A stretch of 64,000 nucleotides of DNA, from NCBI GenBank assembly GCA_036170905.1, contig JAVHQB010000093.1, forward strand, positions 123 to 64,122. The letters run 5' to 3'. The notes beneath the pieces were generated by a model. That model saw nothing but the letters and a program-made list of their open reading frames with translations, ran no database searches and was not told where the DNA came from. The position numbers and the translations under genes are program-made. This stretch comes from Minisyncoccota bacterium. Its GTDB lineage: Bacteria > Patescibacteriota > Minisyncoccia > UBA6257 > JAVHQB01. Positions 1 through 59,079 of this stretch are shown one piece after another (position 1 is the first letter of the stretch; each line of letters opens with the position of its first letter).

Positions 1-294
1 TGCGCTAAGGCTCAGAGCAACCTGCTCATCAATTAAATGCCCGTTTGAGGTAACACAGGCATTCAAACTATTCTTTTTGGTAAAAGAAATTAATTCAAAG
101 ATGTCCTCTCTCAATAACGGCTCTCCTCCACTAAAAACAATAGTTTGCGCGCCTAAACGAGAGACATTCTTAATGACATCCTTCCATTGGTCAGTGGATA
201 ATTCCTCGATTTTCCCATAAGGGATATCACACATCTTGCATCTTAAATTACATCTATTGGTTATAGAAAATATAACTTCCTTCAGGTTGGGCAT
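1..294 (-). CDS. Radical SAM protein, N-terminal part only; the rest runs off the left edge of the window
   Basis: Reverse-complement from an ATG at 294 reads MPNLKEVIFSITNRCNLRCKMCDIPYGK...VFSGGEPLLREDIFELI. It carries a CxxxCxxC cluster motif and a GGEP SAM-binding motif. The frame is open to position 1. It overlaps the next gene by 13 nt. Confidence 0.75.
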   Translation of the reverse strand, partial: MPNLKEVIFSITNRCNLRCKMCDIPYGKIEELSTDQWKDVIKNVSRLGAQTIVFSGGEPLLREDIFELISFTKKNSLNACVTSNGHLIDEQVALSLSA

Positions 295-1430
295 TTTTTT
301 AGCAATTCCTCATAATCTGTTAACTTGGATAGGGCAGCGGACAATAACTCCTTCTTGGTTTCCTTATCAATGTCATTCTTTTTTAGATCATAAATTAATG
401 TATCAATAATACTCGTTAATGAGTCTGCTTCCGGATTTGCCCAACAAGTTTGTAGGCAGGGTTTTACGCAATTTTTCATAATATTTCTAGCCCGGGCAGC
501 TTCCGGCGTAGCCAAGCACGCATTTAAAGGCATTTCTTTTATATTGCCAAAGGCCGCTCCGCAGCTTCTGAGTTCTCCATCCGGACCGATATTTACAAAA
601 ACAAATGGATTACATTTCCACTCTTTTTTAGTTAATTGGCCTTTAAAATGTTTAATCCACAAATAAGGATCGTGTAAAAATGCCACTAAACCGTTATTCT
701 TTTGGTAATTTACAATCTTGTCAATTTGCTCTTTAAGCTTATTAACATCATTTTCATTAAGCCAAAAACGCGCCTCAGAAGAAGTGTTCTGCATATCCTC
801 TTGGGCCACAATCACTGGATGATAAACTAAACACTCAACCCCCAAATCGCTAACCAAGGATATGATATTAAAAAGTTCACCCACATTTTCCTTCATAATA
901 GTAGTCCATACTGATATTTGAGGGCCAAAGCCATTTCTTTTCTTTGCTGCAACAAGATTCTTTATCGCTTCTATTGCTTTTTTAAATGCGCCTTTTTCTC
1001 TTATGAAATCATGAGTCTTTTCTTGCGCCCCATCCAAAGAAATAGCTATGTTTTTTAAACCGGAAAACATAATTTTTTCCGATATATCTTGATTAACCAA
1101 TGAACCATTGCTGACTACTTCTATTTTTAAGTTTGTTTTTTGTGCATATTTGAATACATCGAATATATCATTCCTCAAGAAAGGTTCTCCACCGGTAATA
1201 ACGATGGTAAAATCCCAGTCCCAGCCAGCCATCTCATCAAAAACCCTCTTTACATCTTTAATATCCAGTTCATAACCTTTCAATATCTTTACCACTCCGC
1301 ACATCTGGCAATTATAGGTACACTGATGGCTCAAGCTGATATATATCCAGAGAGGTTTTGCCAAAGGTTTTTCCAAAAGCTCCGAGAAATAGTAGGCTAA
1401 ATTTGTTTCCAGATGTTTTAAATATTCCAT
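282..1430 (-). CDS. Radical SAM enzyme with a C-terminal SPASM/twitch Cys-rich domain (anSME/BtrN-like)
   Basis: SLSHQCTYNCQMC is a CxxxCxxC motif. ITGGEPFLRNDIF follows. The C-terminus reads KCNPF...SCGAAFGN...NCVKPCLQTC. Confidence 0.8.
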   Translation of the reverse strand: MEYLKHLETNLAYYFSELLEKPLAKPLWIYISLSHQCTYNCQMCGVVKILKGYELDIKDVKRVFDEMAGWDWDFTIVITGGEPFLRNDIFDVFKYAQKTNLKIEVVSNGSLVNQDISEKIMFSGLKNIAISLDGAQEKTHDFIREKGAFKKAIEAIKNLVAAKKRNGFGPQISVWTTIMKENVGELFNIISLVSDLGVECLVYHPVIVAQEDMQNTSSEARFWLNENDVNKLKEQIDKIVNYQKNNGLVAFLHDPYLWIKHFKGQLTKKEWKCNPFVFVNIGPDGELRSCGAAFGNIKEMPLNACLATPEAARARNIMKNCVKPCLQTCWANPEADSLTSIIDTLIYDLKKNDIDKETKKELLSAALSKLTDYEELLKKCPT

Positions 1431-1442
1431 AATTTATATTTC

Positions 1443-2648
1443 TTAAAATTTGTTTAAAAACTCAAACTTAAAATCATGATTACCGGTTAATTTCCTTCTT
1501 TTTATAATATAGTTAGCCACATACTCTCCAATAACTCTATGTGCAAACTCGTTATAGTGCGGATCAATATCAAATCTTAAAGATTTAAATTGTGAAGCAC
1601 TGACTAGTATCTTTGATAAATCTAAATATGGAATACCTAATTTTGCGCAAAATTCATCCAAATATTTTATCTGACGGTTTTCTACATTTATTATTAAAAA
1701 ATCCATATCATGCTCTTGGCATAACTTAGCGTATTCAAAGAGCAAAAGAAAGATCAATTGTTCAAAATCATCTTTGGAATACTCATCAACAATTTCATTA
1801 CTCGATTTTATATCCATTCTTACGCTTTTCCAAAATTCCCTATCCGCATTTTTTAGTTGGCGATCAATATTTTGTTTACTTTTATAGAATTCAAACAAAG
1901 TTACTATGTTGCTTTTTTTAAATAACCGCTTATTTTTCTCTTCTTTTACTCTAGTTGCAGGATATTCGGAAGTATTATTTCTTGATTCGGACAAATGAAT
2001 ATAATTATTTTTAACATAGCTGTAATCTTGGAATACGAGGCTTTTTTTATCAGCGCTTAAGATAAACCGTGGCTTAACCATATTAACGCCCCTATGGCCA
2101 TTTTTACATCTGCTTATAAAATCTTCTATTACAAATAAAACCACTAAATCGGGCTTGTATTTAAAACCTTCTTTTTTTAGATATAGAAAAGACTGGTCCA
2201 TACCATAACCTTGTACCCCCGCATTAATTACTTCGGTATTTTTAATGGCCTTTTCGGCTATATCGGTGAAGCGCAGGCCATAACTAACGGACTCACCAAA
2301 CACATTAGACTCTCCCAAAGCAAGAATCCGAAAAATACCCGCCTTTCTTTCAAATTCGACCTCCTCATCTCTTAATCCTTTAGAATTTATTGAATAACAA
2401 ACATCATATTCTGAAGTTTTTATGCAATCATGAGCGCCAGGCCTATATCCCCAGCCCAGCACTTTATCAAACTGCCCGATATTTAGCATATGATTTTTGT
2501 TTAGTTTGCTTTCCATATATTCTATTTTCTTATCTACCTTAAAATCTTTTATAAGCCTAGCGCTGACCATCTCCAGCAAAAAATACCCAATTACTAAAAT
2601 TATTATCATCAAAAAAATATTAACCAGTATTTTCTTAAGATTAGCCAT
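1443..2648 (-). CDS. Membrane-anchored SGNH/GDSL-like hydrolase or acyl-transferase, possibly AlgX/AlgJ-type; substrate unknown
   Basis: There is an N-terminal transmembrane helix. ILALGESNVFGESV is a GDSx-like block I. DPHYNEFAH near the C-terminus is a DxxH block V. Confidence 0.4.
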   Translation of the reverse strand: MANLKKILVNIFLMIIILVIGYFLLEMVSARLIKDFKVDKKIEYMESKLNKNHMLNIGQFDKVLGWGYRPGAHDCIKTSEYDVCYSINSKGLRDEEVEFERKAGIFRILALGESNVFGESVSYGLRFTDIAEKAIKNTEVINAGVQGYGMDQSFLYLKKEGFKYKPDLVVLFVIEDFISRCKNGHRGVNMVKPRFILSADKKSLVFQDYSYVKNNYIHLSESRNNTSEYPATRVKEEKNKRLFKKSNIVTLFEFYKSKQNIDRQLKNADREFWKSVRMDIKSSNEIVDEYSKDDFEQLIFLLLFEYAKLCQEHDMDFLIINVENRQIKYLDEFCAKLGIPYLDLSKILVSASQFKSLRFDIDPHYNEFAHRVIGEYVANYIIKRRKLTGNHDFKFEFLNKF

Positions 2649-2660
2649 TTTTTAACCTTA

Positions 2661-3908
2661 TTAAATCAAATTTTTCCATACTTCATTTTTAAGTACATTC
2701 AATTTATAAACCTCTAATCTTTTCTGGCTAAAATTGCCCAAGAAATTAGGCTTTACGCGCTTTAACAACTCATTGATACAATAATCTATCCTGGATATTA
2801 TTCGCTCACGGGCATGAGCACTATCCGGACCTTCTTTTATTCCGGAAAGAAATTGTTTTACATGTCCGGAGATATCCATAGGGAAATATACGCAATCCTG
2901 GAGGCAGTGGTCCAAACAATTCCTTACAACCTTTCTGATCTTTTGCGCTTCTTCCGAAAACCAGGCCTTCTTCAAACTATCTTTCCGTAAATCGCCGTAT
3001 ATGCCCTTACAGCTCCATAATTTACCATCGCAAGTTATTACAATCCGCTTAATCCCCTCATAACATTTAAAACTCCTCCCGGGCTTTTTGCCCCTAAAAT
3101 AACCGGGGATGGCCTTCAATATGGCAGGGTCTGTGTATATAAGAATACCATTGGTTTCTTCTTTCATCTTGACTAATTTGCCTATATTTTCCTCTAAAAG
3201 CGGCATTTCTTTCAGCGACGGCCATAATGCATTTTTCTTACGGTCATACATGCTGACATTGCTCATCAAAACAGGCTGGAGGACAACGGTATTGCATTTT
3301 TTGCTTTTGGCAAATTCAACAATCTTGAGCATATCATTAATATTTTTATTCAGGATGGTAAAATTTATACCAATGGACGGGCTGGTTACCTTCATTTTTT
3401 CTTTGTAATAATTCAATTTATCGATTGTTTCAACGGACTTAGCGAAAGAACCCTGGCCCCTTATTGCGTCATTTACTCCAGAAATACCGTCTAATGAAAT
3501 AGTAACGTGGTTTAACCCCGAACCGATTAAATTTTGCGCCGCTTCATCGTTGCATAATGTCCCGTTTGTAATAATATCCACCCAGGGTATACCGTTCTCC
3601 CTGGAAAACCGTATAAGCTCCGTAAGGTCTTCGCGCAGCAACGGCTCTCCTCCGGAAAAGATAAGGTGCCTTACTCCCAATTCTTTAATCTGCAGTATAA
3701 TTTTCTTTGCCTCAACAGTAGTCAACTCATCTTCCCGCCGCCCCGGCGATTTCGGTATGTCACACATAACACAACGCAAGCAGCATCTGTTTGTTAACGA
3801 AAAATATACGTGTTCCGGAGGAATAAGAGGATGAGAAATAAGCCGGCTAGTATAAAATCCAATCATATCCTCTAATTTTATTAATTCCCTCTCTAAATAC
3901 TCATTCAT
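2661..3908 (-). CDS. Radical SAM/SPASM-domain enzyme
   Basis: TNRCCLRCVMC motif, then FSGGEPLLREDL. The C-terminus reads KCYEG...TCDGKLWSCKG...NCLDHCLQDC. Confidence 0.8.
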   Translation of the reverse strand: MNEYLERELIKLEDMIGFYTSRLISHPLIPPEHVYFSLTNRCCLRCVMCDIPKSPGRREDELTTVEAKKIILQIKELGVRHLIFSGGEPLLREDLTELIRFSRENGIPWVDIITNGTLCNDEAAQNLIGSGLNHVTISLDGISGVNDAIRGQGSFAKSVETIDKLNYYKEKMKVTSPSIGINFTILNKNINDMLKIVEFAKSKKCNTVVLQPVLMSNVSMYDRKKNALWPSLKEMPLLEENIGKLVKMKEETNGILIYTDPAILKAIPGYFRGKKPGRSFKCYEGIKRIVITCDGKLWSCKGIYGDLRKDSLKKAWFSEEAQKIRKVVRNCLDHCLQDCVYFPMDISGHVKQFLSGIKEGPDSAHARERIISRIDYCINELLKRVKPNFLGNFSQKRLEVYKLNVLKNEVWKNLI

Positions 3909-3910
3909 TA

Positions 3911-4956
3911 TTATCCTTTTCGATTCTTCAGCCCCAGGGCATTCCTAAGGTTACCGGAAACCTCCCTTGAATAACAAGACTGTATACATAAATTTTTACA
4001 ATTTCTAGAATGTATCCTCAACTTTCGCGCTTCCCGGGAAATCCAGGCTTTTTTTAACGATACCTCATTCAAGTTGCCGCAAATACCGTGACAGGTATAG
4101 ACAAGCGGCTCTCTCTTGGAAAAACAAATGAATACGGTTTTAAAACCGCCGAAACAAACCCAGTCCGACTTCTTAAGCATACCCTGGTAATATTTAATCA
4201 ATAATTCCAAGCGTGGCTCTTTTAACACGGTAATATGTTTCCATATAGATTCCTCTATTGCGTCAATTTGATCTTTCAATAACGGTATTTTCTCCGCAGC
4301 CACCCAATTCTGCGGAATCTTCCTTTCCATGAAATTGGCGTTATCGCTGATCAAGGGTTGAAAGTTAATCACATCGACATTGAGGCCATCGGCTAATTGC
4401 GCGATATCATAAAGCTGAGAAACATTTTCATTCATAACAGTAACGGCGATACCCAACGAGAAATTCCTAGCCGCAAGCCTTCTTTTATCCAGCAAGCTGA
4501 TGGCTTCGACAGCCTTACTGAAAGCACCTTTTCCCCTGTAATAATCATTTATATCTTCCAAACCATCAAGCGATAAATGATATGGTCTAAGTTTGATCCG
4601 GCTATGCGCTCTGACATTTCAGCGTCTATAAGTATGCCGTTAGTAGTAACAATGTTTCTCAGGCCCTTAGCATGAGAATAACCGCAGATACTAAATAAGT
4701 CTTCCCTTAAAAAAGGCTCGCCCCCTGTTAAGAGCAACTCTTTTACCCCATAAGCAGCGGCATCATCAATTATCTTGTATATCTGTTCAGTGGATAATTC
4801 TTCTCCCGGAGGCAACAAGTCAACGATACTACACATGCGGCACCTTAAATTACACCTGTAACTAAGCGATACCTGTACCACTTCCGGATGGATTAAGGGA
4901 TAATTTATTTTCCGGGATACCCAATAAAGCAGGTTATTCATCATTTCTCTCCGCAA
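3911..4956 (-). pseudogene. Radical SAM/SPASM paralog split by a frameshift (ORFs 4549-4956 and 3911-4561)
   Basis: The upstream ORF holds RCNLRCRMC and LTGGEPFLREDLF, then ends ...SNLDHIIYRLMVWKI*. The downstream ORF starts at a TTG and reads (H)LSLDGLEDINDYYRGKGAF plus SPASM cysteines (VCFGGF...TCHGICGN...NCKNLCIQSC). The two line up on the intact paralog 10933-11982 with a 1-nt slip near 4565-4585. Confidence 0.6.
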
Positions 4957-5042
4957 AAATTCCCCCTAACTATAGCCTAAAACAGTTAGTCTTTCTAAGA
5001 GTTATTCTTTGATATAAAGTTGTTTTCTTTAAGGTTGAATTA

Positions 5043-6125
5043 TTATAAAGCATTAATTACCAATTTATTTTCTTCTTTTAAGATTGTACAACATTCTTTG
5101 TGACAGGGCGCATTTTTTGATAAGCTTTGCCTAAGCTGTAAAAGTTCATTTTGCCATAGAGTCCTCAATGAAACATTTTTTATATTAAGCCCGGGCACGC
5201 CCAATTGATACTGCGGGCATTTCATTACTTCGCCATTTGAATCTATCGAGAGTATATAATAATTGACAAAACACCTGTTTAAATCTTCCTGATTAGATAT
5301 TTTAGATTTTTCATCGGTTCTATTTTGAGGGTTATCATTTTCTATATTCTCGAGTTCTCCCCAATTACCTTGATAACCCAACTTCTTTTCATTCTTTAGC
5401 ATGGAAAAGATGGATTTAAACTCTTTCATCTCTTCGATATTGAGTTGCAAATCTCCATAGTTTACTAACCCCATATTTAGTAATTTTAAAATATCTACTG
5501 ATTCTATATTCTTATAACTATTGGCAAATTTAACGAGTGAAGGAAGGCTTCTAAAATTGAGTTTGCTTATTACTACATTTAATATAATCTTTACCTTGCT
5601 ATCAATTTGCTGTAAAGTATCCAGGAATTCCACTATGTATTGAAAATACGGCTTTTGATTAATTGCTGGACGCATGGCGTGCTGAATAGAGGGATCAGCA
5701 GAATCAAGGCTGATTCGAATAATATCCCAACCGCAATCGGTCATAATTTTAGCTACTCCAGAATTCAAAAAACTGCCGTTAGTAGTCATCGTGCCGCAAA
5801 GCCCCAGGCGTTTAATCTCCTGTATAATAGCTATAATATCTTTTCTGCAGAAAGGCTCTCCCAAGTGACCGCCTAAATTTATATCTTTAACTTTAAATTC
5901 GCTAGCTTCTCTAAATAAACTGAACAAATCTTCGGTTGAAAGGTTACCGGACAAATCCGGAGAAACGATCTTCCCCCCAAGACAGTATAAACACCTGAGA
6001 TTACAGGTTTTTGTCAACATCAATGCAATAGTTTCAGGGCCAATCTCAGGATTCACTAAGCCAATTTTTACACGTTTGATTGTTTGCTTATCCATATTGT
6101 TTATAAACTTATCTTTTATTCTCAA
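5043..6125 (-). CDS. Radical SAM/SPASM-like enzyme
   Basis: LTKTCNLRCLYC motif, then LGGHLGEPF. The C-terminus reads RCFVN...KCPQ...APCHKECC. Confidence 0.7.
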   Translation of the reverse strand: MRIKDKFINNMDKQTIKRVKIGLVNPEIGPETIALMLTKTCNLRCLYCLGGKIVSPDLSGNLSTEDLFSLFREASEFKVKDINLGGHLGEPFCRKDIIAIIQEIKRLGLCGTMTTNGSFLNSGVAKIMTDCGWDIIRISLDSADPSIQHAMRPAINQKPYFQYIVEFLDTLQQIDSKVKIILNVVISKLNFRSLPSLVKFANSYKNIESVDILKLLNMGLVNYGDLQLNIEEMKEFKSIFSMLKNEKKLGYQGNWGELENIENDNPQNRTDEKSKISNQEDLNRCFVNYYILSIDSNGEVMKCPQYQLGVPGLNIKNVSLRTLWQNELLQLRQSLSKNAPCHKECCTILKEENKLVINAL

Positions 6126-7299
6126 AAGATTTAAAGCGCTTTTTCATTGTTTCGAATTCGTAAAAACTGCAAAAATGGCAATCAGCACAGATTTCCGGCA
6201 ATTTAAAATTAATAAGATTCTTAACAAAGCCGGCGTATTCCCGACTGTAAATAAATTCTTTAAGGCTGTTGAGTTCAAAATAATTATTTTTGTATTGCTT
6301 ATCATACTTAAAGAAACAAAAAGGAATATTACCGTTATAGCTAATTGCCAAAGTAATCAAAGGCAGATAGCATTTTAAGGCCAGGTTGTTCTTGTTCTTC
6401 AGTTCGGGTCGCCCCGGGGAATTATCCGGCAATGAATTACGGCTATGGTTTTTCCCCTCTTTTTTGAATTCAGTTATATCGAAGACTATTTTGAATTCGT
6501 TCAGCTTCTCCTCTATCCGCGGGATATCCTGCGTAAAGCTTTCTTCTTGCTCTTTACTCAACATGAATTCATTTTGATTATCAGAACCGCATCTTAACGG
6601 TTGAAGTGAGAAAAAAGCAATTTTATATCTCCCGATCATATGGATGATATCGGAGATTTTATCATAGTTAACATTTAACAAAATAGACATTATATTAACC
6701 CTGGGAAAATCAGTGCCATAGAGTCCCTTACACTTTACAATAGCATCCAATATACTTAAACTATGCGCGTGCCTGGAAGAATCAGTATAGAGCTTCTTTG
6801 CGGTTTCTTCGGAATCAGTGTTAAGGCTTATATTTAATGAACTGATTAATTTATTCTTTACTATATAATCTACATCCCGACTATCCAGGTTATTGGCGTT
6901 GGTAATAATCCGTATGAAAATATCCGTGTCTTTTAGCCTTTCCAGGAAATAAAACATATTTTCCTTATAAAAAAACGGCTCGCCCCCTCCAAACAAATGG
7001 ATATCCCTGATTTCCAATTCCTTTATATCATTGATCAGCTTATCAATATATTTTCTATCTGCAAAAAAATCTCTTGTAGGTTCATATCTTAAAAAGTCTT
7101 TAGCGCTTTCGCTTCCCGCGCACGCGCCATCGCTGCAATATCGGCACGAGTCATTACATAACGCTGAAGGATAAACAAAGAGCCTAAACGGAACAACGGC
7201 TGAATCCTCTCTCAGATTATACAAGTGGTCTGCCAAAATATCCGTCAGGCTTCCGGGGTCATATTTAAACCTAAAGACTGGTTTAATAGCTAAAGACAT
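6109..7299 (-). CDS. Radical SAM enzyme with a C-terminal auxiliary-cluster domain
   Basis: PSALCNDSCRYC motif, then FGGGEPFF. C-terminal cysteines read PFCFF...CADCHFCSF. It overlaps the downstream gene by 17 nt. Confidence 0.7.
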   Translation of the reverse strand: MSLAIKPVFRFKYDPGSLTDILADHLYNLREDSAVVPFRLFVYPSALCNDSCRYCSDGACAGSESAKDFLRYEPTRDFFADRKYIDKLINDIKELEIRDIHLFGGGEPFFYKENMFYFLERLKDTDIFIRIITNANNLDSRDVDYIVKNKLISSLNISLNTDSEETAKKLYTDSSRHAHSLSILDAIVKCKGLYGTDFPRVNIMSILLNVNYDKISDIIHMIGRYKIAFFSLQPLRCGSDNQNEFMLSKEQEESFTQDIPRIEEKLNEFKIVFDITEFKKEGKNHSRNSLPDNSPGRPELKNKNNLALKCYLPLITLAISYNGNIPFCFFKYDKQYKNNYFELNSLKEFIYSREYAGFVKNLINFKLPEICADCHFCSFYEFETMKKRFKSFENKR

Positions 7300-7315
7300 A
7301 TTTTATACTCATATA

Positions 7316-8257
7316 TTATACAACTAGTCCCGCCAGACAGGGAGATTGACAATTTTCGACTCTTTTCATCTCATTCGCATATTCGCTACTGCTAAATACT
7401 TCTTCCAGTTTATATTTATGCAGGGGATATTCTAATTCTTTACCGCAGATCCAGATGTTTCCCCTTAAGTTGATATTAAAACTCTTCACCCCCATCTTGC
7501 ATTGGGTGTTTCTTCGCAGGGTATTAGTAAAATAATCCATGTATCGGTCTAATATTTCTAAGGGCCGAGTTAACTTAAGCGCCTGATTATTTGACAAATA
7601 CGAAAGTATCCCCTTAAGCGCATTTAACTCCCCTGCGTTAAGATTAAATTTATTTCTAAGGTAATAGATCTCATTATGAGGAATTACCGGTTGAATATCT
7701 AAAGGTACCTGAGGGTAATTCTTTTCAAGAAATTTAATAAAGTTCACGAAGTCGAAAAAATTCTCCGGCATAAGAACAGAGGTAAAATAAAAGGTCCAGC
7801 CATATTGCTTAAGAAGAGCTGCGGCTTCCATAACTTTCGAAAAAACGCCGTTACCTCTTATGCGGTCATTTTCCGCTTCCAAGCCATCCAGTGAGAGTAT
7901 AAATATGGTTTTTTCTTTACATTGGATGATATTTTCCAAGAATCCCCTGGTAAGTAAAGTAGCGTTGGTAATTATATTAACGGTTATACCCTTAGCTGCC
8001 ACTATTTTAACTAACTCGGCTAAATCTTCCGCTCTTAGCAAAGATTCGCCTCCACCGAAACCAATGCTCTGGACTTTGAATCTCGTGATATTCTCAATTA
8101 TAACCTTCCATTCATCCAGGGATAATTCGTGGCTTAAGTCGTGTGGATGAGTGGTAGTAGTGCACATAACACATTTTAAATTACATCTATCCAGCATAGC
8201 TATATAAAACTGCTGGAATTCAAATGAATCTAAATCCTTATTGTTTAATATTGTCAT
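7316..8257 (-). CDS. Radical SAM enzyme (twitch/SPASM-like)
   Basis: LDRCNLKCVMC motif, then GFGGGESLL. The C-terminus reads WICGKE...NCQSPCLAG. Confidence 0.7.
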   Translation of the reverse strand: MTILNNKDLDSFEFQQFYIAMLDRCNLKCVMCTTTTHPHDLSHELSLDEWKVIIENITRFKVQSIGFGGGESLLRAEDLAELVKIVAAKGITVNIITNATLLTRGFLENIIQCKEKTIFILSLDGLEAENDRIRGNGVFSKVMEAAALLKQYGWTFYFTSVLMPENFFDFVNFIKFLEKNYPQVPLDIQPVIPHNEIYYLRNKFNLNAGELNALKGILSYLSNNQALKLTRPLEILDRYMDYFTNTLRRNTQCKMGVKSFNINLRGNIWICGKELEYPLHKYKLEEVFSSSEYANEMKRVENCQSPCLAGLVV

Positions 8258-9503
8258 TTGCTAAACTCCCACTAATAGAGATAAGCATATTTTCTAATTT
8301 CTCTAACGTATTTGCAATATCGCTATCCGACTCTCCGGTATTTGAATTAAGGCCTTCTCTCATTAATTGCAAAAAAGAGTATTCTTCGTTACGAATAGCA
8401 ATTTTGGCATCCCGGGGCAAGTTTACTATTTCTGTCTCCAATTGTGCATGGATTAAACTAATATCGTCCGATTGAGAGCGTTCTGAACAAAATTGGGTGC
8501 AGCTTTTTTTACAATTCCTGATCATCTTCCTGATTTTACCGGTATCCTCTGCATACCATGCCTTTTTAAGGCTGTCTTTTTTAATATTCCCGAATGACTG
8601 GAAGCATACAAAACTCATATCTCCCTGCGGATTTACAAAAATCCTGTTGAATCCCGCGAAACATGTATTTTCAAACCCTTGCCCTCTAAAATGCTTAATA
8701 GTTTTTTCCGGCATGATATCTATATGCATAACACCTGAAAATTCTTCCCTCTTGGCAATTAATATGTCAAAAATTTGCTGCAGCCTGGGAATATCCTTTT
8801 CTTCAATCCAGAGTTCATTGTTTTCTAAAGGTGCAGATAAATCACCATTATTAACTAGGGGCTGGAAGGCTATATAACAACAATTCATTTTTCTTGCTAA
8901 ATCCGCCAAGGCAAGAAGTTCCTCCATGTTCTTCTTCATGATCACGCTTACCATTGCAATATCCAAGACCCTGTCTTCGCTGTTACGGCCATATTTTTCT
9001 TTATAGTAATTAAGATACTCGATGGCACACATCGCTTTCTCAAATATTCCCTCACCCCGGAAAAAATTATGCGTTTTGGGATTAGCCCCGTCGATAGAAA
9101 AACTTATATTCCTTAATCTTGACCTTACTATTTTTTCAGCGGTTTCTTTGTCAATAAAACCGCCGTTAGTATTAATTGTAGTGACGATCCCGGGACGGGC
9201 AGCATAATCGATTAACTCAAATATGTCTTTTCGCAAGAGCGCTTCGCCTCCGGTAAAATAAATCGTCTTTATACCCATAGATATGGCTTCATCAATAAAC
9301 CTTTTAATGTCTTTTGCGCTTGCTTCTTCCTGGAACCGCTGCTTCCATACATTACACATCTTACACTGAAGCTGACACCGGGAGGTAACCATAAGCTGTA
9401 GCATATCAGGCTCAACCATTGCTTTATTCAATAAACGGGAGAAATTAAAAAGGTAATCTCTCTTGTATTTATCGAAGATTTCTTTCATCTTATCTGCTGT
9501 CAC
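8238..9503 (-). CDS. Radical SAM/SPASM-domain enzyme
   Basis: TSRCQLQCKMC motif, then FTGGEALLRKDIF. The C-terminus reads TCFAGFNRIFVNPQGDMSFVCFQSFGNI...NCKKSCTQFC. It overlaps the downstream gene by 20 nt. Confidence 0.8.
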   Translation of the reverse strand: MTADKMKEIFDKYKRDYLFNFSRLLNKAMVEPDMLQLMVTSRCQLQCKMCNVWKQRFQEEASAKDIKRFIDEAISMGIKTIYFTGGEALLRKDIFELIDYAARPGIVTTINTNGGFIDKETAEKIVRSRLRNISFSIDGANPKTHNFFRGEGIFEKAMCAIEYLNYYKEKYGRNSEDRVLDIAMVSVIMKKNMEELLALADLARKMNCCYIAFQPLVNNGDLSAPLENNELWIEEKDIPRLQQIFDILIAKREEFSGVMHIDIMPEKTIKHFRGQGFENTCFAGFNRIFVNPQGDMSFVCFQSFGNIKKDSLKKAWYAEDTGKIRKMIRNCKKSCTQFCSERSQSDDISLIHAQLETEIVNLPRDAKIAIRNEEYSFLQLMREGLNSNTGESDSDIANTLEKLENMLISISGSLANDNIKQ

Positions 9504-9559
9504 TATGAACCCCCTATTTCTTAAAATAGCAATTGCCTTGCCGGATATAACCGGATTTA

Positions 9560-10924
9560 TTAAGAAATACCCCCCTTATAGACGCCTAAGGCCCTCGCAA
9601 GCCCAAATAGCATCCCCTTCCTTACCTCCCTGACCCATGGGCTATTTCTTCCTTTAATATACCACTCCGATTTATTATTATAGCGAATATTCAAAGATTC
9701 CTGCTCTCTCCACAGCCGCGATTTATGGGGGATGTAACAGTTGCTGACGCTTACAAATTCATCAATATATTTCCTGTTCTTGAATAAAAATACCATAGTC
9801 TCTATTATATCACTCCATCTTTCCGTAGGATAACCTACCATCCATAACGTATTTACCTTTATCCCGGAATCGTGAGTCCTCCGTAAGGCTTGAGAGATAT
9901 GCTTTTTTAGCGGCTTACCCATATGCGCCAGGACCCTGGCTGCTCCGCTTTCGATGCCGTATGTAAAATAAATTCCCCCTGCTTTTTTTACTTTATATAA
10001 AAATTCTTGCGACATTTCTACCCGCGCACGAGCCATCCCACCCCATTCAAAATTATTTTTTCCGGAGATTATCTTATCTGCCAGCTGCCCCAATTTGCCT
10101 AAATCCCCGTTAACCATTAAGTCGTTACATTTAAAACGCCTGCGGCCAAAGAGTGCGCTGTGTTTTATCATTTCCCCAAGGATATTATCAACGCTTCGCA
10201 TCCGATACCTTCCCCACATGGGCGCGTCGGTACAGAATGCGCAACTATAATTACATCCCCGACTGAAAATAATCGGAATTTCCGCCTTATTGGTATATCG
10301 CTCAAAATCAAATAATTTTAACGCAGGAAACGGAATGCTATCTACATCTAAAGGATTGGTGTCCCATCCGTTATCCCTAAAGCCTGCGCCTGTATAAATT
10401 AACGTTCCTTCTATAACTGCATCTCTCATGGATTCGCCACGTTCAATTTTTCCTGCTATCTTACTAATAATCTTTTCGCCTTCCCCGCGAACATAAACAT
10501 CAACATTATTATTTAACTCTCCGGTTTCCATGACCTCCGCACACCATGGCCCGCCAAAAACGATACAGACGTCCTTCGCTTTTTTCTTTAATGCATCCGC
10601 CAACAAATTAGCTAATATCCTCGAATGACTGTTAACGCTTAAACCGATAATTCTCGGATTACGTTCCAGAACGGCCTCTGTCCATTTTTCCAACAAATCG
10701 GGTACATTAAAATTCATACTTATTTTTTCTAAAGATGTCCAGTAATCGGAATTTTCCCAATCCCACAAAAATTGCTTATCTTTACTTTCTACGTATAATT
10801 GAGAATTGAAACAAAAAACAGAAACATCATATCCGTTATTTATTAACTGGCCGGCTATATAAGCTATACCCAAAGGCGGCATATCAACACCATAAAGAGG
10901 AGGAAAGACTAAGGCTATATTCAT
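9560..10924 (-). CDS. B12-binding-domain (class B) radical SAM enzyme, probably a methyltransferase or other C-H functionaliser
   Basis: The N-terminus (MNIALVFPPL...PPLGIAYIAG...IIGLS) has the Rossmann-like B12-binding layout. FSRGCNYSCAFC is the CxxxCxxC motif. Confidence 0.7.
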   Translation of the reverse strand: MNIALVFPPLYGVDMPPLGIAYIAGQLINNGYDVSVFCFNSQLYVESKDKQFLWDWENSDYWTSLEKISMNFNVPDLLEKWTEAVLERNPRIIGLSVNSHSRILANLLADALKKKAKDVCIVFGGPWCAEVMETGELNNNVDVYVRGEGEKIISKIAGKIERGESMRDAVIEGTLIYTGAGFRDNGWDTNPLDVDSIPFPALKLFDFERYTNKAEIPIIFSRGCNYSCAFCTDAPMWGRYRMRSVDNILGEMIKHSALFGRRRFKCNDLMVNGDLGKLGQLADKIISGKNNFEWGGMARARVEMSQEFLYKVKKAGGIYFTYGIESGAARVLAHMGKPLKKHISQALRRTHDSGIKVNTLWMVGYPTERWSDIIETMVFLFKNRKYIDEFVSVSNCYIPHKSRLWREQESLNIRYNNKSEWYIKGRNSPWVREVRKGMLFGLARALGVYKGGIS

Positions 10925-10932
10925 ATTTATTT

Positions 10933-11982
10933 TTAAAAATTATTTTTTATGATATTTTTTAAACTAGCGGATTCATCTCGGGCATGGCAATCCTGAAGAC
11001 AGTAATTACGGCATTTTTTTATGCCTATTCTTCTTTTTTTAGCCTTTTCAGAATACCAGATTTTTTTGACTGAAGATTCTTTCCTGATGTTGCCGATTTC
11101 TTCACCACACATCTGAATTACCCCGCCGGGAATTACTGCAAATCTGCGATAACCGGCAAAACAAACCCATTCTCCTTCGCAGATATTCCTCCTAAAATAT
11201 TTTTTGATTAAACGGAAGCTAGGGTAATTCAAACCATAACCTTGCTGCTGGAGAATGTTGATTTTATCTATCATCTGATCGAGCTTATTCAGGCGTTCTC
11301 CGGTAATCCATAAATTATCCTCACCTCCAGATGAATCTTGTTTGTACAGTTTGACGTTATCAAAAACTACGGAAGTTATATATAAGGCATTGATAGATAA
11401 ACTCCTGGCTAAAGAAAAATATTCCTCCAACTCATCAAGGTTATAGTTGGATAGGGTTAAAATCATTACCTTGATTAATTTCTTCGCATTCGGGCAACTG
11501 TTTAAATGCTTTATTCCCTGCATTATTTTATCAAAAGCCCCAGGCTGAGCCCTAATTTTATCATGTGTTGCCGCTTTTGATCCATCAACAGATATCGTAA
11601 TTATATCCAACCCCGACTGGATCAATTCTTTAGCTAAATCTTCCGTTATTAAAGTGCCGTTTGTTGTTAGTATAACCTTCATATCAGAAGCTTTAGCAAA
11701 TTTTATTACATCAAAGATTAATTCACTGATCAATGGTTCGCCGCCGCATAAATTAATCTCTTTTACTCCCCACTCTTTACATTGGCTGATCACACCCTTA
11801 ACCTCTTCTAAAGTCAGATCATCTTCCTTCTTGGCGTCTTTCCAGGCATTGCACATTTTACACCTAAGATTACATCTGCTGGTGAGTGAAATCTGCAGGG
11901 TATCCGGGGGAACTAGAGGATAATTAATTTTCCTCGATAGCCAAAAGCCTATATCCTTTTTTAATTTTACTGAGATATTCAT
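10933..11982 (-). CDS. Radical SAM/SPASM-domain enzyme
   Basis: TSRCNLRCKMC motif, then CGGEPLISELIF. The C-terminus reads VCFAGYRRFAVIPGGVIQMCGEEIGNI...CRNYCLQDC. Confidence 0.8.
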   Translation of the reverse strand: MNISVKLKKDIGFWLSRKINYPLVPPDTLQISLTSRCNLRCKMCNAWKDAKKEDDLTLEEVKGVISQCKEWGVKEINLCGGEPLISELIFDVIKFAKASDMKVILTTNGTLITEDLAKELIQSGLDIITISVDGSKAATHDKIRAQPGAFDKIMQGIKHLNSCPNAKKLIKVMILTLSNYNLDELEEYFSLARSLSINALYITSVVFDNVKLYKQDSSGGEDNLWITGERLNKLDQMIDKINILQQQGYGLNYPSFRLIKKYFRRNICEGEWVCFAGYRRFAVIPGGVIQMCGEEIGNIRKESSVKKIWYSEKAKKRRIGIKKCRNYCLQDCHARDESASLKNIIKNNF

Positions 11983-12027
11983 AATTTTGGCCTAAACGCA
12001 TACTTTACTTTAAACCATAACCGATAG

Positions 12028-13917
12028 CTAATCACAAAAGCAGGGTAAAAGACAAGGGTGTTTGCATCCCCTCACCCTGTCCCTGGCCTGCTCACTATCT
12101 TTAGATGCATATATTTCTTTTAAACTATTCTTACGAATATTACCATAACTTTCAAAACACGTAGTTACCTCTCCATTATTAGCGATAAGCATGGTTTTAG
12201 TCGCATAGAGACATTTTACGTCATTTTGGGATAAAGAGCCCCGAAAATATTTTTTTATAAGACTAAGGTTGCTTTCTGAATTACGCACAAGGGCAGGGTT
12301 ATTTCTTTTAAACTCCATAAGGTTATCAATTGTTTTGTCTAAAACAGCGAGCCTGTCCGGAGTAATCCAATATTTAGCGCCTTTTTTCCTCTCATTCATG
12401 GCCAGATTATTCGCAAGCAAAGGCTGGAATTGAATAGAATTTATATTTAACGATTTTAGAAAAATAGCCAGATCCAAAAGCTCTTCTAAATTTTCATTAA
12501 GAATTACTGATATAGAATTAAAGTTTATGCCTGGATATTCTTTTTTAAATTCGGAAAGCATCTTTAAGGCATTAGAAGTTTTATCAAAACATCCCTTGAC
12601 CCCCCTGATTTCATCATGAATTCCCGGGGTTAACGCATCAAGAGAAATGCTTAAAGAAAGGTATCCGCCTGCTAAATACGGAAGTAATCTTTTAATAAAA
12701 TTACCGTTCAATATAACCCCGTTAGTCAATACCCCGACATGATATTCCTTTTCTCGTACAAAATCCAGTATCTCAAAAATATCTTTTCGTATGAGAGGCT
12801 CGCCTCCGGATAAAGCAAAGTCCTTAACCTGCCAATCAAGCGCTTCATTTATAATCCTCCCTACTTCCTTTAAGGTATATTCTTTAACCGGCTTATCTTT
12901 TCTGATCTCGCAAATATTACACTGGAGATTACATCTATGGGATATATCTAAGATAATTAATTCCGGCTTAAGGAAATTTTTATCAAGTATTTTTTTTGTC
13001 CTGCCATACTCGAACGTATTGCCTATTAAGTAATTAATTTTATGTAATACAAAATAAATATAAACTTGGAATTTTTCATAAAAGCTCAACCGATTATGAC
13101 ATCGGATCAAGCGTTTGCCTAAAAGATAAGCAAAGCGCGGTATTTTAATAATATTTATAATTAATCCGGAAATAAAAACAACACTGTTTTTGGTCTTTAT
13201 TTCTTTTAACAAAGGATGATCCTGATGCATATATTGAACTAAATAATTTCCCCTGCCGTACATATATGCCTGCTTTAGAAAAGAAATCAGATCCGTATGA
13301 CAATCATGGAATACTTTTATGTCTTTCTTATAACTGAACCTGTTACCTTTCTTAAAAAGCCGCCAGAAAAAATCCAGATCTTCACCCGCAGGCAAAGGGA
13401 ATAATTCGTCAAACTCGCTGACAAGAGAGGCCCGCTTAAAAGATACATTACAGGTAGGGAAAAATATGGTTTCAGGTTTCCCGTTTATTTCTGTTTCTAT
13501 CGCCCCGTCGCTTAAGAATTGGCTAACCTGTGCCTTAATATTATGGCTGTCAACCTCAGTAAAACCTCCGATTGCTGCAATATGCTCCTCTTGGCTATGC
13601 GCCCGAACCATATTTTTGACCCAATCTTTATCTAGAACGCAATCACTATCCGTAAATCCAACTATCCCTGCCCGGGCATGTTTAATACCTAAGTTTCTGG
13701 CAGCAGCAGGGCCCCTATGGCTCTGGATAAAATACTTTAAATTTGGATTTATCTTAGAAAGCGCGCAAAGCATATCCTTGGTCCCATCAACCGAACCATC
13801 ATCTATAACGATTATCTCAAAAGCGTCTCCGGGATAACTCTGCACAAATAAAGAGTCCAGACAAAATTTAAGTTTAACCTTTCGATTATAAGTGGGAATT
13901 ATTACAGATATGTCCAT
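12028..13917 (-). CDS. Fusion protein: N-terminal GT2 (GT-A) glycosyltransferase domain joined to a C-terminal radical SAM/SPASM domain
   Basis: N-terminus MDISVIIPTYNR...IIVIDDGSVDGT...FTDSDC is GT2-like, with a DxD-type motif. The C-terminal half carries DISHRCNLQCNIC, LSGGEPLIRKDIF and SPASM cysteines (KCLYATK...TCFESYGNI...GCKHPCLLPCFCD). Confidence 0.75.
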   Translation of the reverse strand: MDISVIIPTYNRKVKLKFCLDSLFVQSYPGDAFEIIVIDDGSVDGTKDMLCALSKINPNLKYFIQSHRGPAAARNLGIKHARAGIVGFTDSDCVLDKDWVKNMVRAHSQEEHIAAIGGFTEVDSHNIKAQVSQFLSDGAIETEINGKPETIFFPTCNVSFKRASLVSEFDELFPLPAGEDLDFFWRLFKKGNRFSYKKDIKVFHDCHTDLISFLKQAYMYGRGNYLVQYMHQDHPLLKEIKTKNSVVFISGLIINIIKIPRFAYLLGKRLIRCHNRLSFYEKFQVYIYFVLHKINYLIGNTFEYGRTKKILDKNFLKPELIILDISHRCNLQCNICEIRKDKPVKEYTLKEVGRIINEALDWQVKDFALSGGEPLIRKDIFEILDFVREKEYHVGVLTNGVILNGNFIKRLLPYLAGGYLSLSISLDALTPGIHDEIRGVKGCFDKTSNALKMLSEFKKEYPGINFNSISVILNENLEELLDLAIFLKSLNINSIQFQPLLANNLAMNERKKGAKYWITPDRLAVLDKTIDNLMEFKRNNPALVRNSESNLSLIKKYFRGSLSQNDVKCLYATKTMLIANNGEVTTCFESYGNIRKNSLKEIYASKDSEQARDRVRGCKHPCLLPCFCD

Positions 13918-17425: not shown

Positions 17426-18717
17426 TTTATTTTCTCGGCTACCCTTTGGCCATCAAGTATAGCATCTTCCATAGACATATACTGCCAGTTTCCGTAACGG
17501 CCGCAGGCAATTATATTATTACGCAGTAAAAATTCTTTTATTGTTTTAGTTGCCTGCGAATAATGCTGATCATAAATAGGATAACCGTATTTTATATCAT
17601 TGGTGTCTGAAACTAACACTTTGTTTTTTTTATTCAAGATCCCGATTCTGTTAAGATCATTTAAAATCCGCTTAACAATCTTTCCTCTGGAAATTGGCTT
17701 ACTTTTTGAATATGCAACCTCCGCATATAAAGAACTCCTACCCTTAGGAGCAATAGTATTGGAAAAATTATGGAAGAATCCAGCCCTAAAAAATATAGTT
17801 TCTTGATGCGGAAAATACACCCAATGTTTACCGTCTCGGTAGCTTCCCTCTACGCCAAGATTCAAATTAAAAATTGAATTCCAGCGCAGTTTTTTGAAAC
17901 TGCTAAGAATTTTATCAGGTAACGGCTTGATTATTCTTATCAATTCAGGTAAAGGTATTGTTGAAATTAAGATATCGAATCTTTTCTTACCCGCGCCTAT
18001 AATAGTTATCTCCTTTTTTTCAAGATCAATTTCACTTATGCAACAATTCTTGTAAACATCGCCAATCTGTTTTTCAAATGCCTGAGGAAGTTGTCCTATT
18101 CCTCCTTTTCTGGGATACCAAAAGATAGCATTATAACCAAAACCATCCCTGCTCTTGCCAAAGAACCCGCTAGCTATATCTACTAGGCTGAGCTGGGGAA
18201 TAAATTTATCAGTCCAGGCGCAAGTCATTTGGCTCAAAGGAACTGTCCAAAATTTCTTATTATAAGGAATCATAAAATGCCTGGCTATACCTTTGCCAAA
18301 GGTAGTATTTATCCATTTTAGAAAATTTACCTGGCTTTTACTGGCCCAAGAACTGCTAGCCTGAATAAATTCCAATAAACATTCCCTGGCTATTGGCTTA
18401 GGTAAGGCATAGAGATTAGCCTGAAAGGGATAGCGGCTAAAAATACCGAAATTACTGATCCAGGCGCTTCTTTCATGACGTACCAAATTCCCCTTTAATA
18501 GTTTTCTCACCAGCCTCAGCGTATAACTGTTGCGAAAATGCAAAAGGTGGCCGTCATAATCAAAAATAAAACCATTGATTTGCTTAGAGCGACACAGACC
18601 GCCTACTGTATTTTCTTTTTCAAATACAGTAGCCCCTATCCCTCTTTTCTTAAGATGCCAGGCAGTACTTAAACCTGCAAGGCCTGCCCCTAAAATAACA
18701 ATCTTCTTTTTAGTCAT
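17416..18717 (-). CDS. FAD/NAD(P)-binding flavoprotein of the UDP-galactopyranose mutase / amine-oxidase superfamily
   Basis: N-terminal dinucleotide fold IVILGAGLAGLSTAWHL...FEKENTVGGL. The C-terminus GRYGNWQYMSMEDAILDGQRVAEKI resembles the UGM C-terminal GR.G.Y.Y.MD motif. Confidence 0.5.
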   Translation of the reverse strand: MTKKKIVILGAGLAGLSTAWHLKKRGIGATVFEKENTVGGLCRSKQINGFIFDYDGHLLHFRNSYTLRLVRKLLKGNLVRHERSAWISNFGIFSRYPFQANLYALPKPIARECLLEFIQASSSWASKSQVNFLKWINTTFGKGIARHFMIPYNKKFWTVPLSQMTCAWTDKFIPQLSLVDIASGFFGKSRDGFGYNAIFWYPRKGGIGQLPQAFEKQIGDVYKNCCISEIDLEKKEITIIGAGKKRFDILISTIPLPELIRIIKPLPDKILSSFKKLRWNSIFNLNLGVEGSYRDGKHWVYFPHQETIFFRAGFFHNFSNTIAPKGRSSLYAEVAYSKSKPISRGKIVKRILNDLNRIGILNKKNKVLVSDTNDIKYGYPIYDQHYSQATKTIKEFLLRNNIIACGRYGNWQYMSMEDAILDGQRVAEKIKCP

Positions 18718-20846: not shown

Positions 20847-21121
20847 TCTATAGACAAGTTAAAAGGTCATCTGCTCTAATCAATTCTATCATACTAGCCG
20901 CAGCTAAAGGAACTCTTTTATGACTCCTGAATTTATTTCTGATCTTGAACCATAGTTAACCCTAAGATTACCCACTATACAAAAACCACTTTAGGTAGAA
21001 AAAACGTAAAATCTAAAAAGTTATGAATTAAAAACGCGACGCTTGCTACAAACAATCCCGCAATCTGATTCTTATCAAATAAAGAGGAGAATGTCAAACT
21101 CGGCATACAGCTAAAAACCAA

Positions 21122-29148: not shown

Positions 29149-29160
29149 CGGATCAATTCC

Positions 29161-51647: not shown

Positions 51648-51654
51648 TATTCAT
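50041..51654 (-). CDS. GT-C-fold glycosyltransferase, ArnT/PMT-like (tandem copy 2)
   Basis: Protein sequence identical to 48394-50007 over about 515 aa. Confidence 0.65.
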   Translation of the reverse strand: MNISKRNSFINNLALFLIIILAFFLRIYKIDHHLQGGIFFEEPQYIRNILMGFVSDVKMFNYPPFFDLLLVFINKIYFLFYFLLGHFRSMADLIKAFNINYSIDYVRLLFVHRLIVAIIGTLTVPVLFLIAKDLFNSLAGLFCALFLAVVPLHVYTSIDAIGPDNFQLFFICLAFLYICKIFVDSPKKKYYILSGLFIGLAAATKYFGIFCVIPLLIAHFFSKRNKEDKKYLYLCFGMTVLVLFITSFPRMVMHIQEVSSTLKFFVDTHTTPVSVYNTIYQTLAQRIGWVSYPNSLISGLGLGIFILSIAGLLLSLIRHSKKDILIFAFPLSYYLFLGQFYFCLIEYILPAVPFMILLAVNFLLFVSGKIYLNNKKTLILCLIICCLAFPSLKEAIYYKRWTSQKPIQKDIENWILGSIPAGSSILFDGDDLGGRGKLEPLLFYNQQIPYRVTVMDWQYDFKNLEHFFKDNEFDYVIIDQTRVIPEKLKPVYKYIDKKFTMIKEFNPLFPTPRHNYFSIYGVFYNHSFEIYKNNKIE

Positions 51655-59065: not shown

Positions 59066-59079
59066 TCAACTCTCCTTTG

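Follow-up and report, generated by a model that had tools for sequence, protein, structure and literature searches.

Wzm/Wzt O-antigen loci, as described for Aquifex aeolicus, E. coli O9a and Klebsiella O2a, combine a WecA-type transferase, glycosyltransferases of the GT1 and GT2 families, the permease Wzm and an extended ATPase, Wzt, and in these loci conserved flanks surround a variable, recombining center. The same components and the same division into flanks and center are found at one end of the 64,000-nucleotide stretch analyzed here (the window; contig JAVHQB010000093.1 of assembly GCA_036170905.1, positions 123 to 64,122), where an earlier note had described an array of radical S-adenosylmethionine (rSAM) enzyme genes at positions 1-11982. 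The locus differs from the described ones in that its variable region consists mainly of rSAM genes and not of glycosyltransferase genes (seven twitch-type copies and one B12-type copy in the window), in that a GT2 enzyme is fused to an rSAM domain, in that Wzt carries a 650-aa extension of three repeats, and in that the gene of the Wzy_C ligase family, which relatives of the locus share with Wzm/Wzt loci, is degraded.

Carbohydrate-acting rSAMs of the twitch/SPASM type, such as BlsE, BtrN and DesII, are known as isolated cases from antibiotic pathways, with NeoN and AprD4 as further examples. Like the twitch-type enzymes of the array (R0 to R8 and the rSAM half of the fusion), they consist of an rSAM core and a short C-terminal auxiliary domain whose first cysteine pair is spaced by 17-18 residues. 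However, identity to the array enzymes is only ~12-21%, the curated models are missed widely (BlsE: 76 bits, cut-off 400), and each of the known enzymes works alone and on a small molecule, whereas ten or more rSAMs are found here in one exporter-linked operon, an arrangement that extends across the phylum. Several SPASM/twitch rSAMs together with B12-type rSAMs in one operon are also found in clusters for ribosomally synthesized peptides with post-translational modifications (RiPPs), i.e., in sactipeptide/ranthipeptide clusters and in proteusin clusters with PoyB/C/D-type methylases and epimerases, and the RiPP enzymes SkfB, CteB and SuiB are the top structural neighbors. In contrast to these clusters, the locus contains no precursor gene, RiPP recognition element (RRE) or leader peptidase, and its context is glycan assembly and export. 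An rSAM-SPASM protein (MftC) and a GT2 enzyme (MftF) likewise occur together in the mycofactocin system; the GT2 half of the fusion matches MftF (7e-39) and the R proteins match MftC. A mycofactocin assignment was nevertheless rejected: MftF reaches 134 bits against a cut-off of 280 and MftC at most 89 against 265, there are no MftA- or MftB-like open reading frames (ORFs), and architecture and context differ. No description of such rSAM arrays was found in the library searched, which comprised open-access papers and bioRxiv.

A glycan-export locus with a variable center

We consider it fairly probable that the array represents the variable tailoring module of an ABC-exported, O-antigen-like surface-glycan locus of Candidatus Omnitrophota, with rSAMs performing most of the tailoring. 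Matches to the Pfam families ABC2_membrane, ABC_tran, Glycos_transf_4, Glycos_transf_1 and Glycos_transf_2 cover a Wzm/Wzt glycan pathway within the locus, and the array is co-oriented and nearly gapless with the genes for Wzm, Wzt, a WecA-like GT4 enzyme, a GT1 enzyme, a GH44-like hydrolase and a flavoprotein (Table 1), the first ~24 kb of the window being a single unbroken gene string on the minus strand. The nucleotide-binding domain of Wzt matches the solved O-antigen exporter Wzt of A. aeolicus (E = 5e-62) and TagH/TarH (2e-50). The joining of the array to a glycan exporter, as claimed in the earlier note, holds beyond the window, as Wzt is located at most 3 kb upstream of the fusion gene in 33 of 46 Omnitrophota loci, a strict automated count over loci with enough upstream sequence that becomes larger by eye. 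The GT4 enzyme is presumed to be the initiating enzyme. In the close relatives L073 and L074 an intact Wzy_C gene (369-384 aa) is found at the position at which the window genome retains a remnant, from which it appears to have been deleted.

In related loci, whose ORFs were labeled by BLAST against the window proteins, a common plan can be recognized: GT1-GT4-flavoprotein-(TPR)-Wzm-Wzt-(GH44)-GT2::rSAM fusion-[variable cassette]-R1-R0-GT2-B12 rSAM-GT2. In many relatives the GH44-like gene is located between Wzt and the fusion, the conserved gene that anchors the array on its 5' side. A genome scan identified the fusion in 62 loci at 42-76% identity, nearly all titled Omnitrophota and the rest uncultured Planctomycetales, Planctomycetia or just bacterium, while a protein search returned at least 120 cluster representatives, 51-100% identical among the matches listed, of which the named ones all belong to Candidatus Omnitrophota. 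Among 53 fusion sequences, the DxD (D90, D92) and GED (E179, D180) motifs of the GT2 half, the CX3CX2C motif of the rSAM half and five auxiliary cysteines are all invariant. The GT2 half is closest to polymer-decorating or polymerizing GT-A enzymes (K4CP, TarS, TarP, RmlT, WrtF and PcManGT). An AlphaFold2 (AF2) model of the fusion has a mean predicted local distance difference test score (pLDDT) of 89.7, with both domains confident; its predicted template modeling (TM) score is 0.59 and the linker at residues 311-315 is of low confidence, so that no conclusion can be drawn from how the two active sites are oriented towards each other. In the lineage closest to the window, the fusion is split into two genes overlapping by 11 nt (L073, 8056-9946; L074, 8083-9973), and in other lineages (L022, P0145, P0153 and P0157) it is extended to 963-1170 aa by an additional domain. 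This pattern of fusion and fission argues for a single pathway that comprises both the radical reaction and glycosyl transfer.

Between the fusion and R1, the content of the locus varies strongly. R1 is a near-universal member (orthogroup in 29 loci) and adjoins R0 wherever an R0 orthologue exists. In the 29 loci with both anchors, the distance from fusion to R1 ranges from 24 nt (L037 and L022) to 10.6 kb in the window, the largest seen, and the cassettes hold zero to seven twitch-type and zero to three B12-type rSAMs, the split R3 of the window being counted once; the copy-number variation in relatives that the earlier note had proposed to look for thus exists. The cassettes of relatives interleave rSAM genes with genes for SAM-dependent methyltransferases, GT2 and GT-C/PMT_2 glycosyltransferases and SGNH proteins, homologues of the window's SGNH protein occurring within those of L016, L020, L024, L064, L070 and L074. 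Orthogroups were defined at 45% identity or more with a coverage filter, single linkage at 38% having chained almost all paralogs together. Every window paralog falls into its own orthogroup (fusion, 54 loci; R1, 29; R2, 16; R8, 10; R7, six; R4, four; R5 and R6, three each). Clusters of R0 relatives (21 loci) and R3 relatives (19 loci) also exist, which the truncated R0 and split R3 of the window themselves did not join, and 34 singleton types occur in other genomes. Certain genes recur as adjacent pairs, namely R3-R2 in all 14 loci with an R2 orthologue, B12a-R7 in all seven with an R7 orthologue, and R1-R0 in 12 of 12. Divergence of the copies had earlier been attributed to repeated duplication and diversification, which would suggest local tandem duplication. 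In this form the interpretation is not supported, as each paralog shares its orthogroup with 2-53 other loci, while pairwise protein identity among the paralogs of the genome itself is no more than 22-45%. The sequence comparison therefore points to old duplications, with current variation consisting of gain, loss and recombinational replacement of whole modules.

The exchange of modules is also reflected in a mosaic of synonymous divergence (dS). Compared with L073 and L074, the flanking genes of the window (GH44, GT1, Wzm, Wzt, fusion, R8, R2 and R1) are 82-94% identical at the amino acid level, with dS of 0.57-0.84 where measured, whereas the central genes (B12a, R7, R6, R5, R4 and R3) are 48-63% identical, and in L073 dS is saturated or above 2.7 in the five central genes measured (B12a, R7, R5, R6 and R4). 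The opposite is observed for L041 and L015: the flanks are ~65-82% identical with dS from at least 1.2 to saturated, except for two distal genes in L015, those for GT4 and the flavoprotein (0.72-0.85), while the central R7, R6, R5, R4 and R2 are 77-88% identical with dS of 0.45-0.76 and R3 is 80-83% identical. B12a takes an intermediate position in this comparison (dS ~1.0-1.2). The discordance between flanks and center indicates that cassettes are exchanged by recombination, as they are at O-antigen and capsule loci. Population-variable polysaccharide cassettes have been described in complete Omnitrophota genomes in a preprint that does not mention rSAM arrays (10.64898/2026.06.07.730766).

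Diversifying selection, for which a check had been suggested, is not seen at the level of whole genes. The gene-wide ratio of non-synonymous to synonymous substitution rates (dN/dS) is 0.04-0.2 for all rSAM genes, which indicates functional genes under purifying selection. The same values, obtained for orthologues in many genomes, speak against the array being an artefact of assembly or the decaying remains of tandem duplicates without current function. Such an explanation could draw on the copy that is frameshifted in the window and on a nearly identical tandem duplication of PMT_2 genes elsewhere in the window. However, identity between the paralogs is low, positions 1-14000 contain no direct DNA repeat that reaches 40 nt, and six independent Logan assemblies reproduce the region with the same gene order at ~99.8-99.9% identity. 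An artefact of collapsed or expanded repeats, which the earlier note had named as a possible refutation, is therefore excluded, and the array is real. The frameshift itself, a single missing C near position 4579 that splits R3, is absent from an independent Logan assembly (L001, 99.9% identical), which reads CCATATC[C]ATTT and encodes R3 as one continuous ORF of 348 aa. Since R3 is intact there, the frameshift probably represents a minor variant or a mistake made in sequencing or assembly; the frameshifted copy noted earlier is thus split in the window but probably no real pseudogene. Taken together, we regard an artefact or relic as extremely improbable.

According to the favored reading, a glycan-tailoring locus, the WecA-type GT4 enzyme would start a glycan on polyprenyl phosphate at the cytoplasmic face, and GT1 and GT2 enzymes would lengthen it. 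The cytoplasmic rSAMs (ten twitch-type, one of them GT2-fused, and one B12-type) would edit its sugars, either as nucleotide-sugar donors or within the lipid-linked chain. Candidate reactions, proposed by analogy with BlsE, BtrN, DesII and class B methylases, are dehydrogenation, epimerization, decarboxylation and deoxygenation, and C-methylation for the B12 enzyme. The finished chain would be exported by Wzm/Wzt, and the SGNH protein, anchored in the membrane, may attach acyl groups or take them off outside the cytoplasm, in the periplasm. The set of modules between the fusion and the R1-R0-GT2 block, which differs among genomes, is swapped by recombination and therefore behaves like a serotype-determining region. 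There is precedent for such chemistry. The twitch rSAM BlsE is a sugar-acid decarboxylase, DesII and BtrN also match the profile of the array family, and calditol synthase, an rSAM, is reported to remodel a lipid-linked hexose (10.1101/2023.10.20.563219).

Several points weigh against this reading. Ordinary glycan tailoring needs no radical chemistry, which leaves the presence of ten rSAMs unexplained, and the glycan role is deduced from sequence. The array enzymes reach no curated family cut-off, their closest solved relatives are only 14-21% identical, and the peptide-modifying SkfB, CteB and SuiB rank equal to or above sugar-modifying enzymes. Furthermore, the O-antigen-ligase-like gene is only a 41-aa remnant in the window, and the C-terminal repeats of Wzt track the flanks and not the cassette, so that there is no sign of co-adaptation to cassette-specific modifications. 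The repeats (residues ~245-904, positions 13918-15900) are ~210-230 aa long and 26-34% identical to each other; they show no Pfam, NCBIfam or PDB sequence match and no recognizable carbohydrate-binding family. Wzt is ~900-910 aa long in most loci, its extension diverging faster than the ATPase domain.

A more far-reaching proposal is put forward tentatively, as we give it somewhat less than an even chance. According to it, the surface glycan of Omnitrophota is hypermodified by radical chemistry, interchangeable twitch- and B12-type rSAM modules and not the glycosyltransferases are the main determinants of glycan and serotype diversity, and the fusion links sugar transfer with the radical editing of a lipid-linked chain. 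The arrays would then be a glycan counterpart of the proteusin-type hypermodification of peptides and would offer carbohydrate-modifying radical enzymes from a new source. If the rSAMs do act on a glycan, many new radical sugar-editing reactions and an unrecognized route to surface-glycan diversity under anoxic conditions would come to light. Omnitrophota have been reported to be ultra-small and largely host-dependent (10.64898/2026.06.07.730766), and the cell surface is therefore likely to be central to their lifestyle. For this phylum, of which hardly any member is in culture, the conserved locus and its horizontally exchanged cassette would offer a testable handle on the interaction with hosts or phages. 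It also follows that genome-mining tools may mislabel such arrays as RiPP clusters.

Class and candidate substrates of the rSAM enzymes

All ten twitch-type copies and the B12-type copy are members of the Radical SAM superfamily, with PF04055 scores of 47-99 bits against a cut-off of 29.5. The twitch-type copies can be aligned through the CX3CX2C motif, the SAM-binding motif GGEP (GGE), TNG and S-L-D-G. Downstream of the core they share four to five cysteines in the pattern C-x17/18-C...C-x3-C(-x3-C), the first spacing being x17/18 in eight of the ten paralogs, x16 in R1 and x10 in R0. In the R8 family (68 sequences), C274 and C292 do not vary, and conservation is 90% or more at C324, C328 and C332. 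For the SPASM class with its two auxiliary clusters, the seven-cysteine motif CX9-15GX4C - gap - CX2CX5CX3C - gap - C and a PF13186 score of at least 21.5 bits were demanded, and for the twitch type a β-hairpin cysteine pair ~17-18 residues apart with two to three downstream cysteines, enough for one auxiliary cluster. Pfam SPASM is above threshold in six of the ten copies (R2, R4, R5, R7, R8 and the fusion), stays below it in R1 and R3 (Table 1) and does not match R6 at all; as only four to five C-terminal cysteines are conserved, the SPASM class was rejected. The SPASM/twitch label of the earlier note can consequently be narrowed to its second half: the ten copies are predicted to be twitch-type enzymes, i.e., BtrN-like with a truncated SPASM domain, that would bind an auxiliary cluster; BtrN, SkfB and BlsE match both by profile and by fold. 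B12a belongs to the class B rSAMs (Table 1) and is presumed to be a C-methyltransferase-type enzyme; its NCBIfam matches (ApyD, RiPP C-methyltransferase, BchE and PhpK models) are all far under cut-off. The same holds for the entire array, for which an NCBIfam scan returned dozens of rSAM-family matches, none near its curated cut-off, and hence no functional name can be transferred to the array enzymes.

Comparisons with solved structures lead to a similar result. Orthologues of R8 range from 94% to 42% identity, and the named homologues all belong to Candidatus Omnitrophota. The best single-sequence match of R8 in the PDB is BlsE (3e-15), whereas the 68-sequence profile of its family matches SkfB (9e-34), CteB (6e-30), BlsE, PqqE, MoaA and GDGT-MAS, and also viperin, DesII, anSME and BtrN. 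An AF2 model of R8 (pLDDT 92.9) has SkfB, BlsE, SuiB, CteB, viperin and MoaA as Foldseek neighbors, at TM scores of ~0.6-0.7 and 12-21% identity. Enzymes acting on peptides, sugars, nucleotides and lipids thus score about equally against R8, by sequence, profile and structure alike, and homology places the family in the generic SPASM/twitch clade without identifying a substrate. The assignment to a glycan consequently rests on genomic context and on the fusion. A role in defense as prokaryotic viperin (pVip) was rejected, as the best score is 78.9 bits against the NF038283 cut-off of 180 and the PADLOC pVip matches comprise the rSAM core only, at most profile positions 2-200 of 257/262.

Because peptide-modifying enzymes rank so highly, it has to be considered whether the rSAMs are peptide or protein maturases (RiPP- or anSME-like) with a substrate encoded elsewhere, the ABC-2 transporter then serving in export or immunity. 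The RiPP maturases SkfB and CteB are the best PDB matches of the profile, and the top NCBIfam matches include models of the WgkB, StsB, PqqE and MftC type. Arrays that combine SPASM with B12 rSAMs are characteristic of proteusin- and ranthipeptide-type clusters, and ABC-2 transporters occur in RiPP clusters as well. However, the maturase-model matches are all far under their cut-offs, and the lack of a precursor that the earlier note had remarked on holds more widely: no precursor-like ORF is present in the array gaps of the window (at most 86 nt), and no small-ORF family is conserved across ~65 related loci with flanks of up to 10 kb, more distant precursors being outside this scope. The recurring small-ORF "families" in these loci consist only of contig-end gene fragments, Wzy_C remnants and antisense noise. 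No PqqD-like RRE was detected in the scanned window proteins; with the CX3CX2C motif beginning at residues 15-48, and a single helix before strand 1 in the R8 model, there is no room for such a domain. No peptidase is present either, the transporter ATPase is specifically Wzt/TagH-like, and one of the rSAMs is fused to a glycosyltransferase. In view of these observations, peptide or protein maturation appears unlikely.

A second alternative concerns the modification of lipids, i.e., of the polyprenyl carrier, a glycolipid aglycone or membrane-spanning lipids, in the manner of Tes, Mss, Hbs and Grs. The best NCBIfam match of R8 is AhbD, and Hbs has been described as a relative of AhbD within the SPASM/twitch enzymes, homologues of Hbs and Mss being reported from Omnitrophota genomes in the same paper (10.1101/2023.10.20.563219). 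Both the family profile and the R8 model match GDGT-MAS/Tes, and further upstream the window contains genes for a UbiA prenyltransferase and for many B12 rSAMs. Against this, Hbs requires an N-terminal COG4001 domain of ~100 aa (10.1101/2023.10.20.563219), which is absent from the array proteins, and the array has no tes or mss neighbors. Hydrophobic segments are absent from the R proteins and from the 437-aa GT2 protein encoded beyond R0 in the Logan contigs, and the fusion has only one. In addition, the cassettes are interleaved with glycosyltransferase, methyltransferase and SGNH genes and anchored by the GT2 fusion and Wzm/Wzt. Lipid modification is thus about as improbable as peptide maturation, and the probability beyond the glycan-tailoring reading and its three rivals is left to readings not yet conceived.

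Gene inventory and junctions of the array

The coordinates of all genes of the locus are listed in Table 1. Ten SPASM/twitch genes had been counted in positions 1-11982. This stretch contains nine, of which R0 is truncated by the window edge and R3 is frameshifted, together with one B12-type rSAM gene and one SGNH gene; the tenth twitch-type domain is found just outside, as the C-terminal half of the fusion. In all other respects the composition given in the earlier note was confirmed: the genes are arranged head to tail on the minus strand, a single copy is of the B12-binding type, the motifs CTYNC, CCLRC, CNLRC, CNDSC and CQLQC are all found, each claimed copy carrying CX3CX2C and a Radical_SAM match above threshold, and the only non-rSAM gene of the stretch encodes a membrane-anchored SGNH-fold protein.

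Table 1. Genes of the rSAM array and of the adjoining glycan-export region, in window coordinates.
Feature	Position	Strand	Basis and remarks
R0, twitch-type rSAM, N-terminal 98 codons, CNLRC	1..294	-	Runs off the window; judged from motif and full gene in L002
R1, twitch-type rSAM, 382 aa, CTYNC	282..1430	-	Pfam Radical_SAM 74.7 bits; SPASM 18.5 bits (sub-threshold)
SGNH-fold esterase/acyltransferase-like protein, membrane-anchored, 401 aa	1443..2648	-	7-homologue profile
R2, twitch/SPASM-type rSAM, 415 aa, CCLRC	2661..3908	-	Pfam Radical_SAM 89.7 bits, SPASM 28.1 bits
R3, twitch-type rSAM, CNLRC	3911..4956	-	Split by a 1-nt deletion; SPASM 16.9 bits (sub-threshold)
R4, twitch-type rSAM, CNLRC	5043..6125	-	Pfam; 360-aa ORF from TTG
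R5, twitch-type rSAM, 396 aa, CNDSC, C-terminal C-x2-C-x2-C	6109..7299	-	Radical_SAM 47 bits, SPASM 23.4 bits
R6, short twitch-type rSAM, 313 aa, CNLKC, only four C-terminal Cys	7316..8257	-	Radical_SAM 80.2 bits; no SPASM match
R7, twitch/SPASM-type rSAM, 421 aa, CQLQC	8238..9503	-	Pfam; module with B12a
B12a, class B (cobalamin-binding) rSAM, 454 aa	9560..10924	-	Pfam B12-binding (PF02310) 46.4 bits, cut-off 32.1; Radical_SAM 51.2 bits
R8, twitch-type rSAM, 349 aa, CNLRC	10933..11982	-	Pfam
GT2::twitch-type rSAM fusion, 629 aa, CNLQC	12028..13917	-	Pfam Glycos_transf_2 114.6 bits, Radical_SAM 76 bits, SPASM 27.9 bits
Wzt-type ABC transporter ATPase, 904 aa, 650-aa C-terminal extension	13918..16632	-	Match of nucleotide-binding domain
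Wzm-type ABC-2 permease, 263 aa	16634..17425	-	Pfam ABC2_membrane
FAD/NAD-binding amine-oxidase-fold flavoprotein, 433 aa	17416..18717	-	PRK07208-like; distant UDP-galactopyranose mutase similarity
GT4-family polyprenyl-phosphate sugar-1-phosphate transferase (WecA/MraY type)	18710..19693	-	PF00953 Glycos_transf_4, 105.5 bits
GT1-type (GT-B fold) glycosyltransferase, 386 aa	19686..20846	-	Pfam Glycos_transf_1, 130.7 bits
Wzy_C/O-antigen-ligase-like remnant	20990..21112	-	tblastn, 63% identity over 41 aa to a 384-aa L073 gene
GH44-like glycoside hydrolase, N-terminal domain similar to carbohydrate-binding modules, 699 aa	21122..23221	-	Pfam Glyco_hydro_44; NCBIfam EpsB GH44 weak

The SGNH protein alone matches no Pfam or NCBIfam model, but a profile of seven homologues matches at least 30 GDSL/SGNH structures (best E = 1.3e-7). 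Blocks I (GES, S114), II (G), III (N..G) and V (DxxH) are conserved, with S114, G118, G144 and G147 invariant and the histidine of block V conserved, and residues 1-34 form an N-terminal hydrophobic membrane helix. R0 measures ~390-410 aa at full length and is followed by the 437-aa GT2 gene, as seen in the Logan contigs L002 and L003. R2 and R3 constitute one module. R5 is the most divergent twitch-type copy, and its top NCBIfam match is the twitch-domain rSAM model NF033640, under cut-off.

The junctions within the array range from -20 to +16 nt, except for three gaps of 45-86 nt. Promoter- and terminator-like sites show no excess over shuffled sequence, which, in combination with the tight junctions, fits one long operon. 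Overlaps of 13-20 nt between stop and start codons had been taken to imply translational coupling. There are four in all, and only two of them are robust. R0 and R1 overlap by 13 nt, the start of R0 being set by the conserved N-terminus MPNLKEVI; the start of R6, which overlaps the stop of R7 by 20 nt, is kept in L041, and both overlaps are backed by conserved N-termini. By contrast, the overlap at 4549-4561 is the frameshift itself, and that of R5 and R4 (17 nt) probably disappears, as R4 is likely to start at an ATG at Met11 (near 6095), where its orthologues begin with MDKQTI, and to be ~350 aa long. Translational coupling is therefore plausible, at R1/R0 and R7/R6.

The remainder of the window

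The remaining part of the window is likewise dense in genes for anaerobic tailoring. Further rSAM genes are located in positions 24000-62600, namely six more for B12-binding enzymes (at 31499, 35280, 36664, 41938, 43394 and 54380), one for a variant rSAM (55936) and another rSAM gene (61453), which brings the total to ~20 in 64 kb. Four genes of the U32 family, to which the O2-independent hydroxylases UbiU/V and TrhP belong, are arranged in two neighboring pairs (24987 and 27089; 38146 and 39311). Polytopic membrane proteins without a family match adjoin U32 genes (23277-24961 and 28111-29901); examples are proteins of 342 aa (23277) and 219 aa (24302) and the paralogs at 28111 and 29161. The same region encodes a UbiA prenyltransferase, two carbamoyltransferases, a polysaccharide deacetylase and six GT-C glycosyltransferases of the PMT_2/PMT type. 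Directly downstream of one carbamoyltransferase gene (59487-61304), two small membrane ORFs of 133 and 52 aa are found at 58907-59481 on the minus strand; no other small ORFs in the larger gaps of the window are well formed, and these two are unlike rSAM precursors. Two of the PMT_2 genes (48394-50007 and 50041-51654, minus strand) form a tandem pair that is 99.3% identical over 1614 nt, with all 11 differences confined to 53 nt at one end, and represent an artefact of assembly or else a tandem duplication of very recent date.

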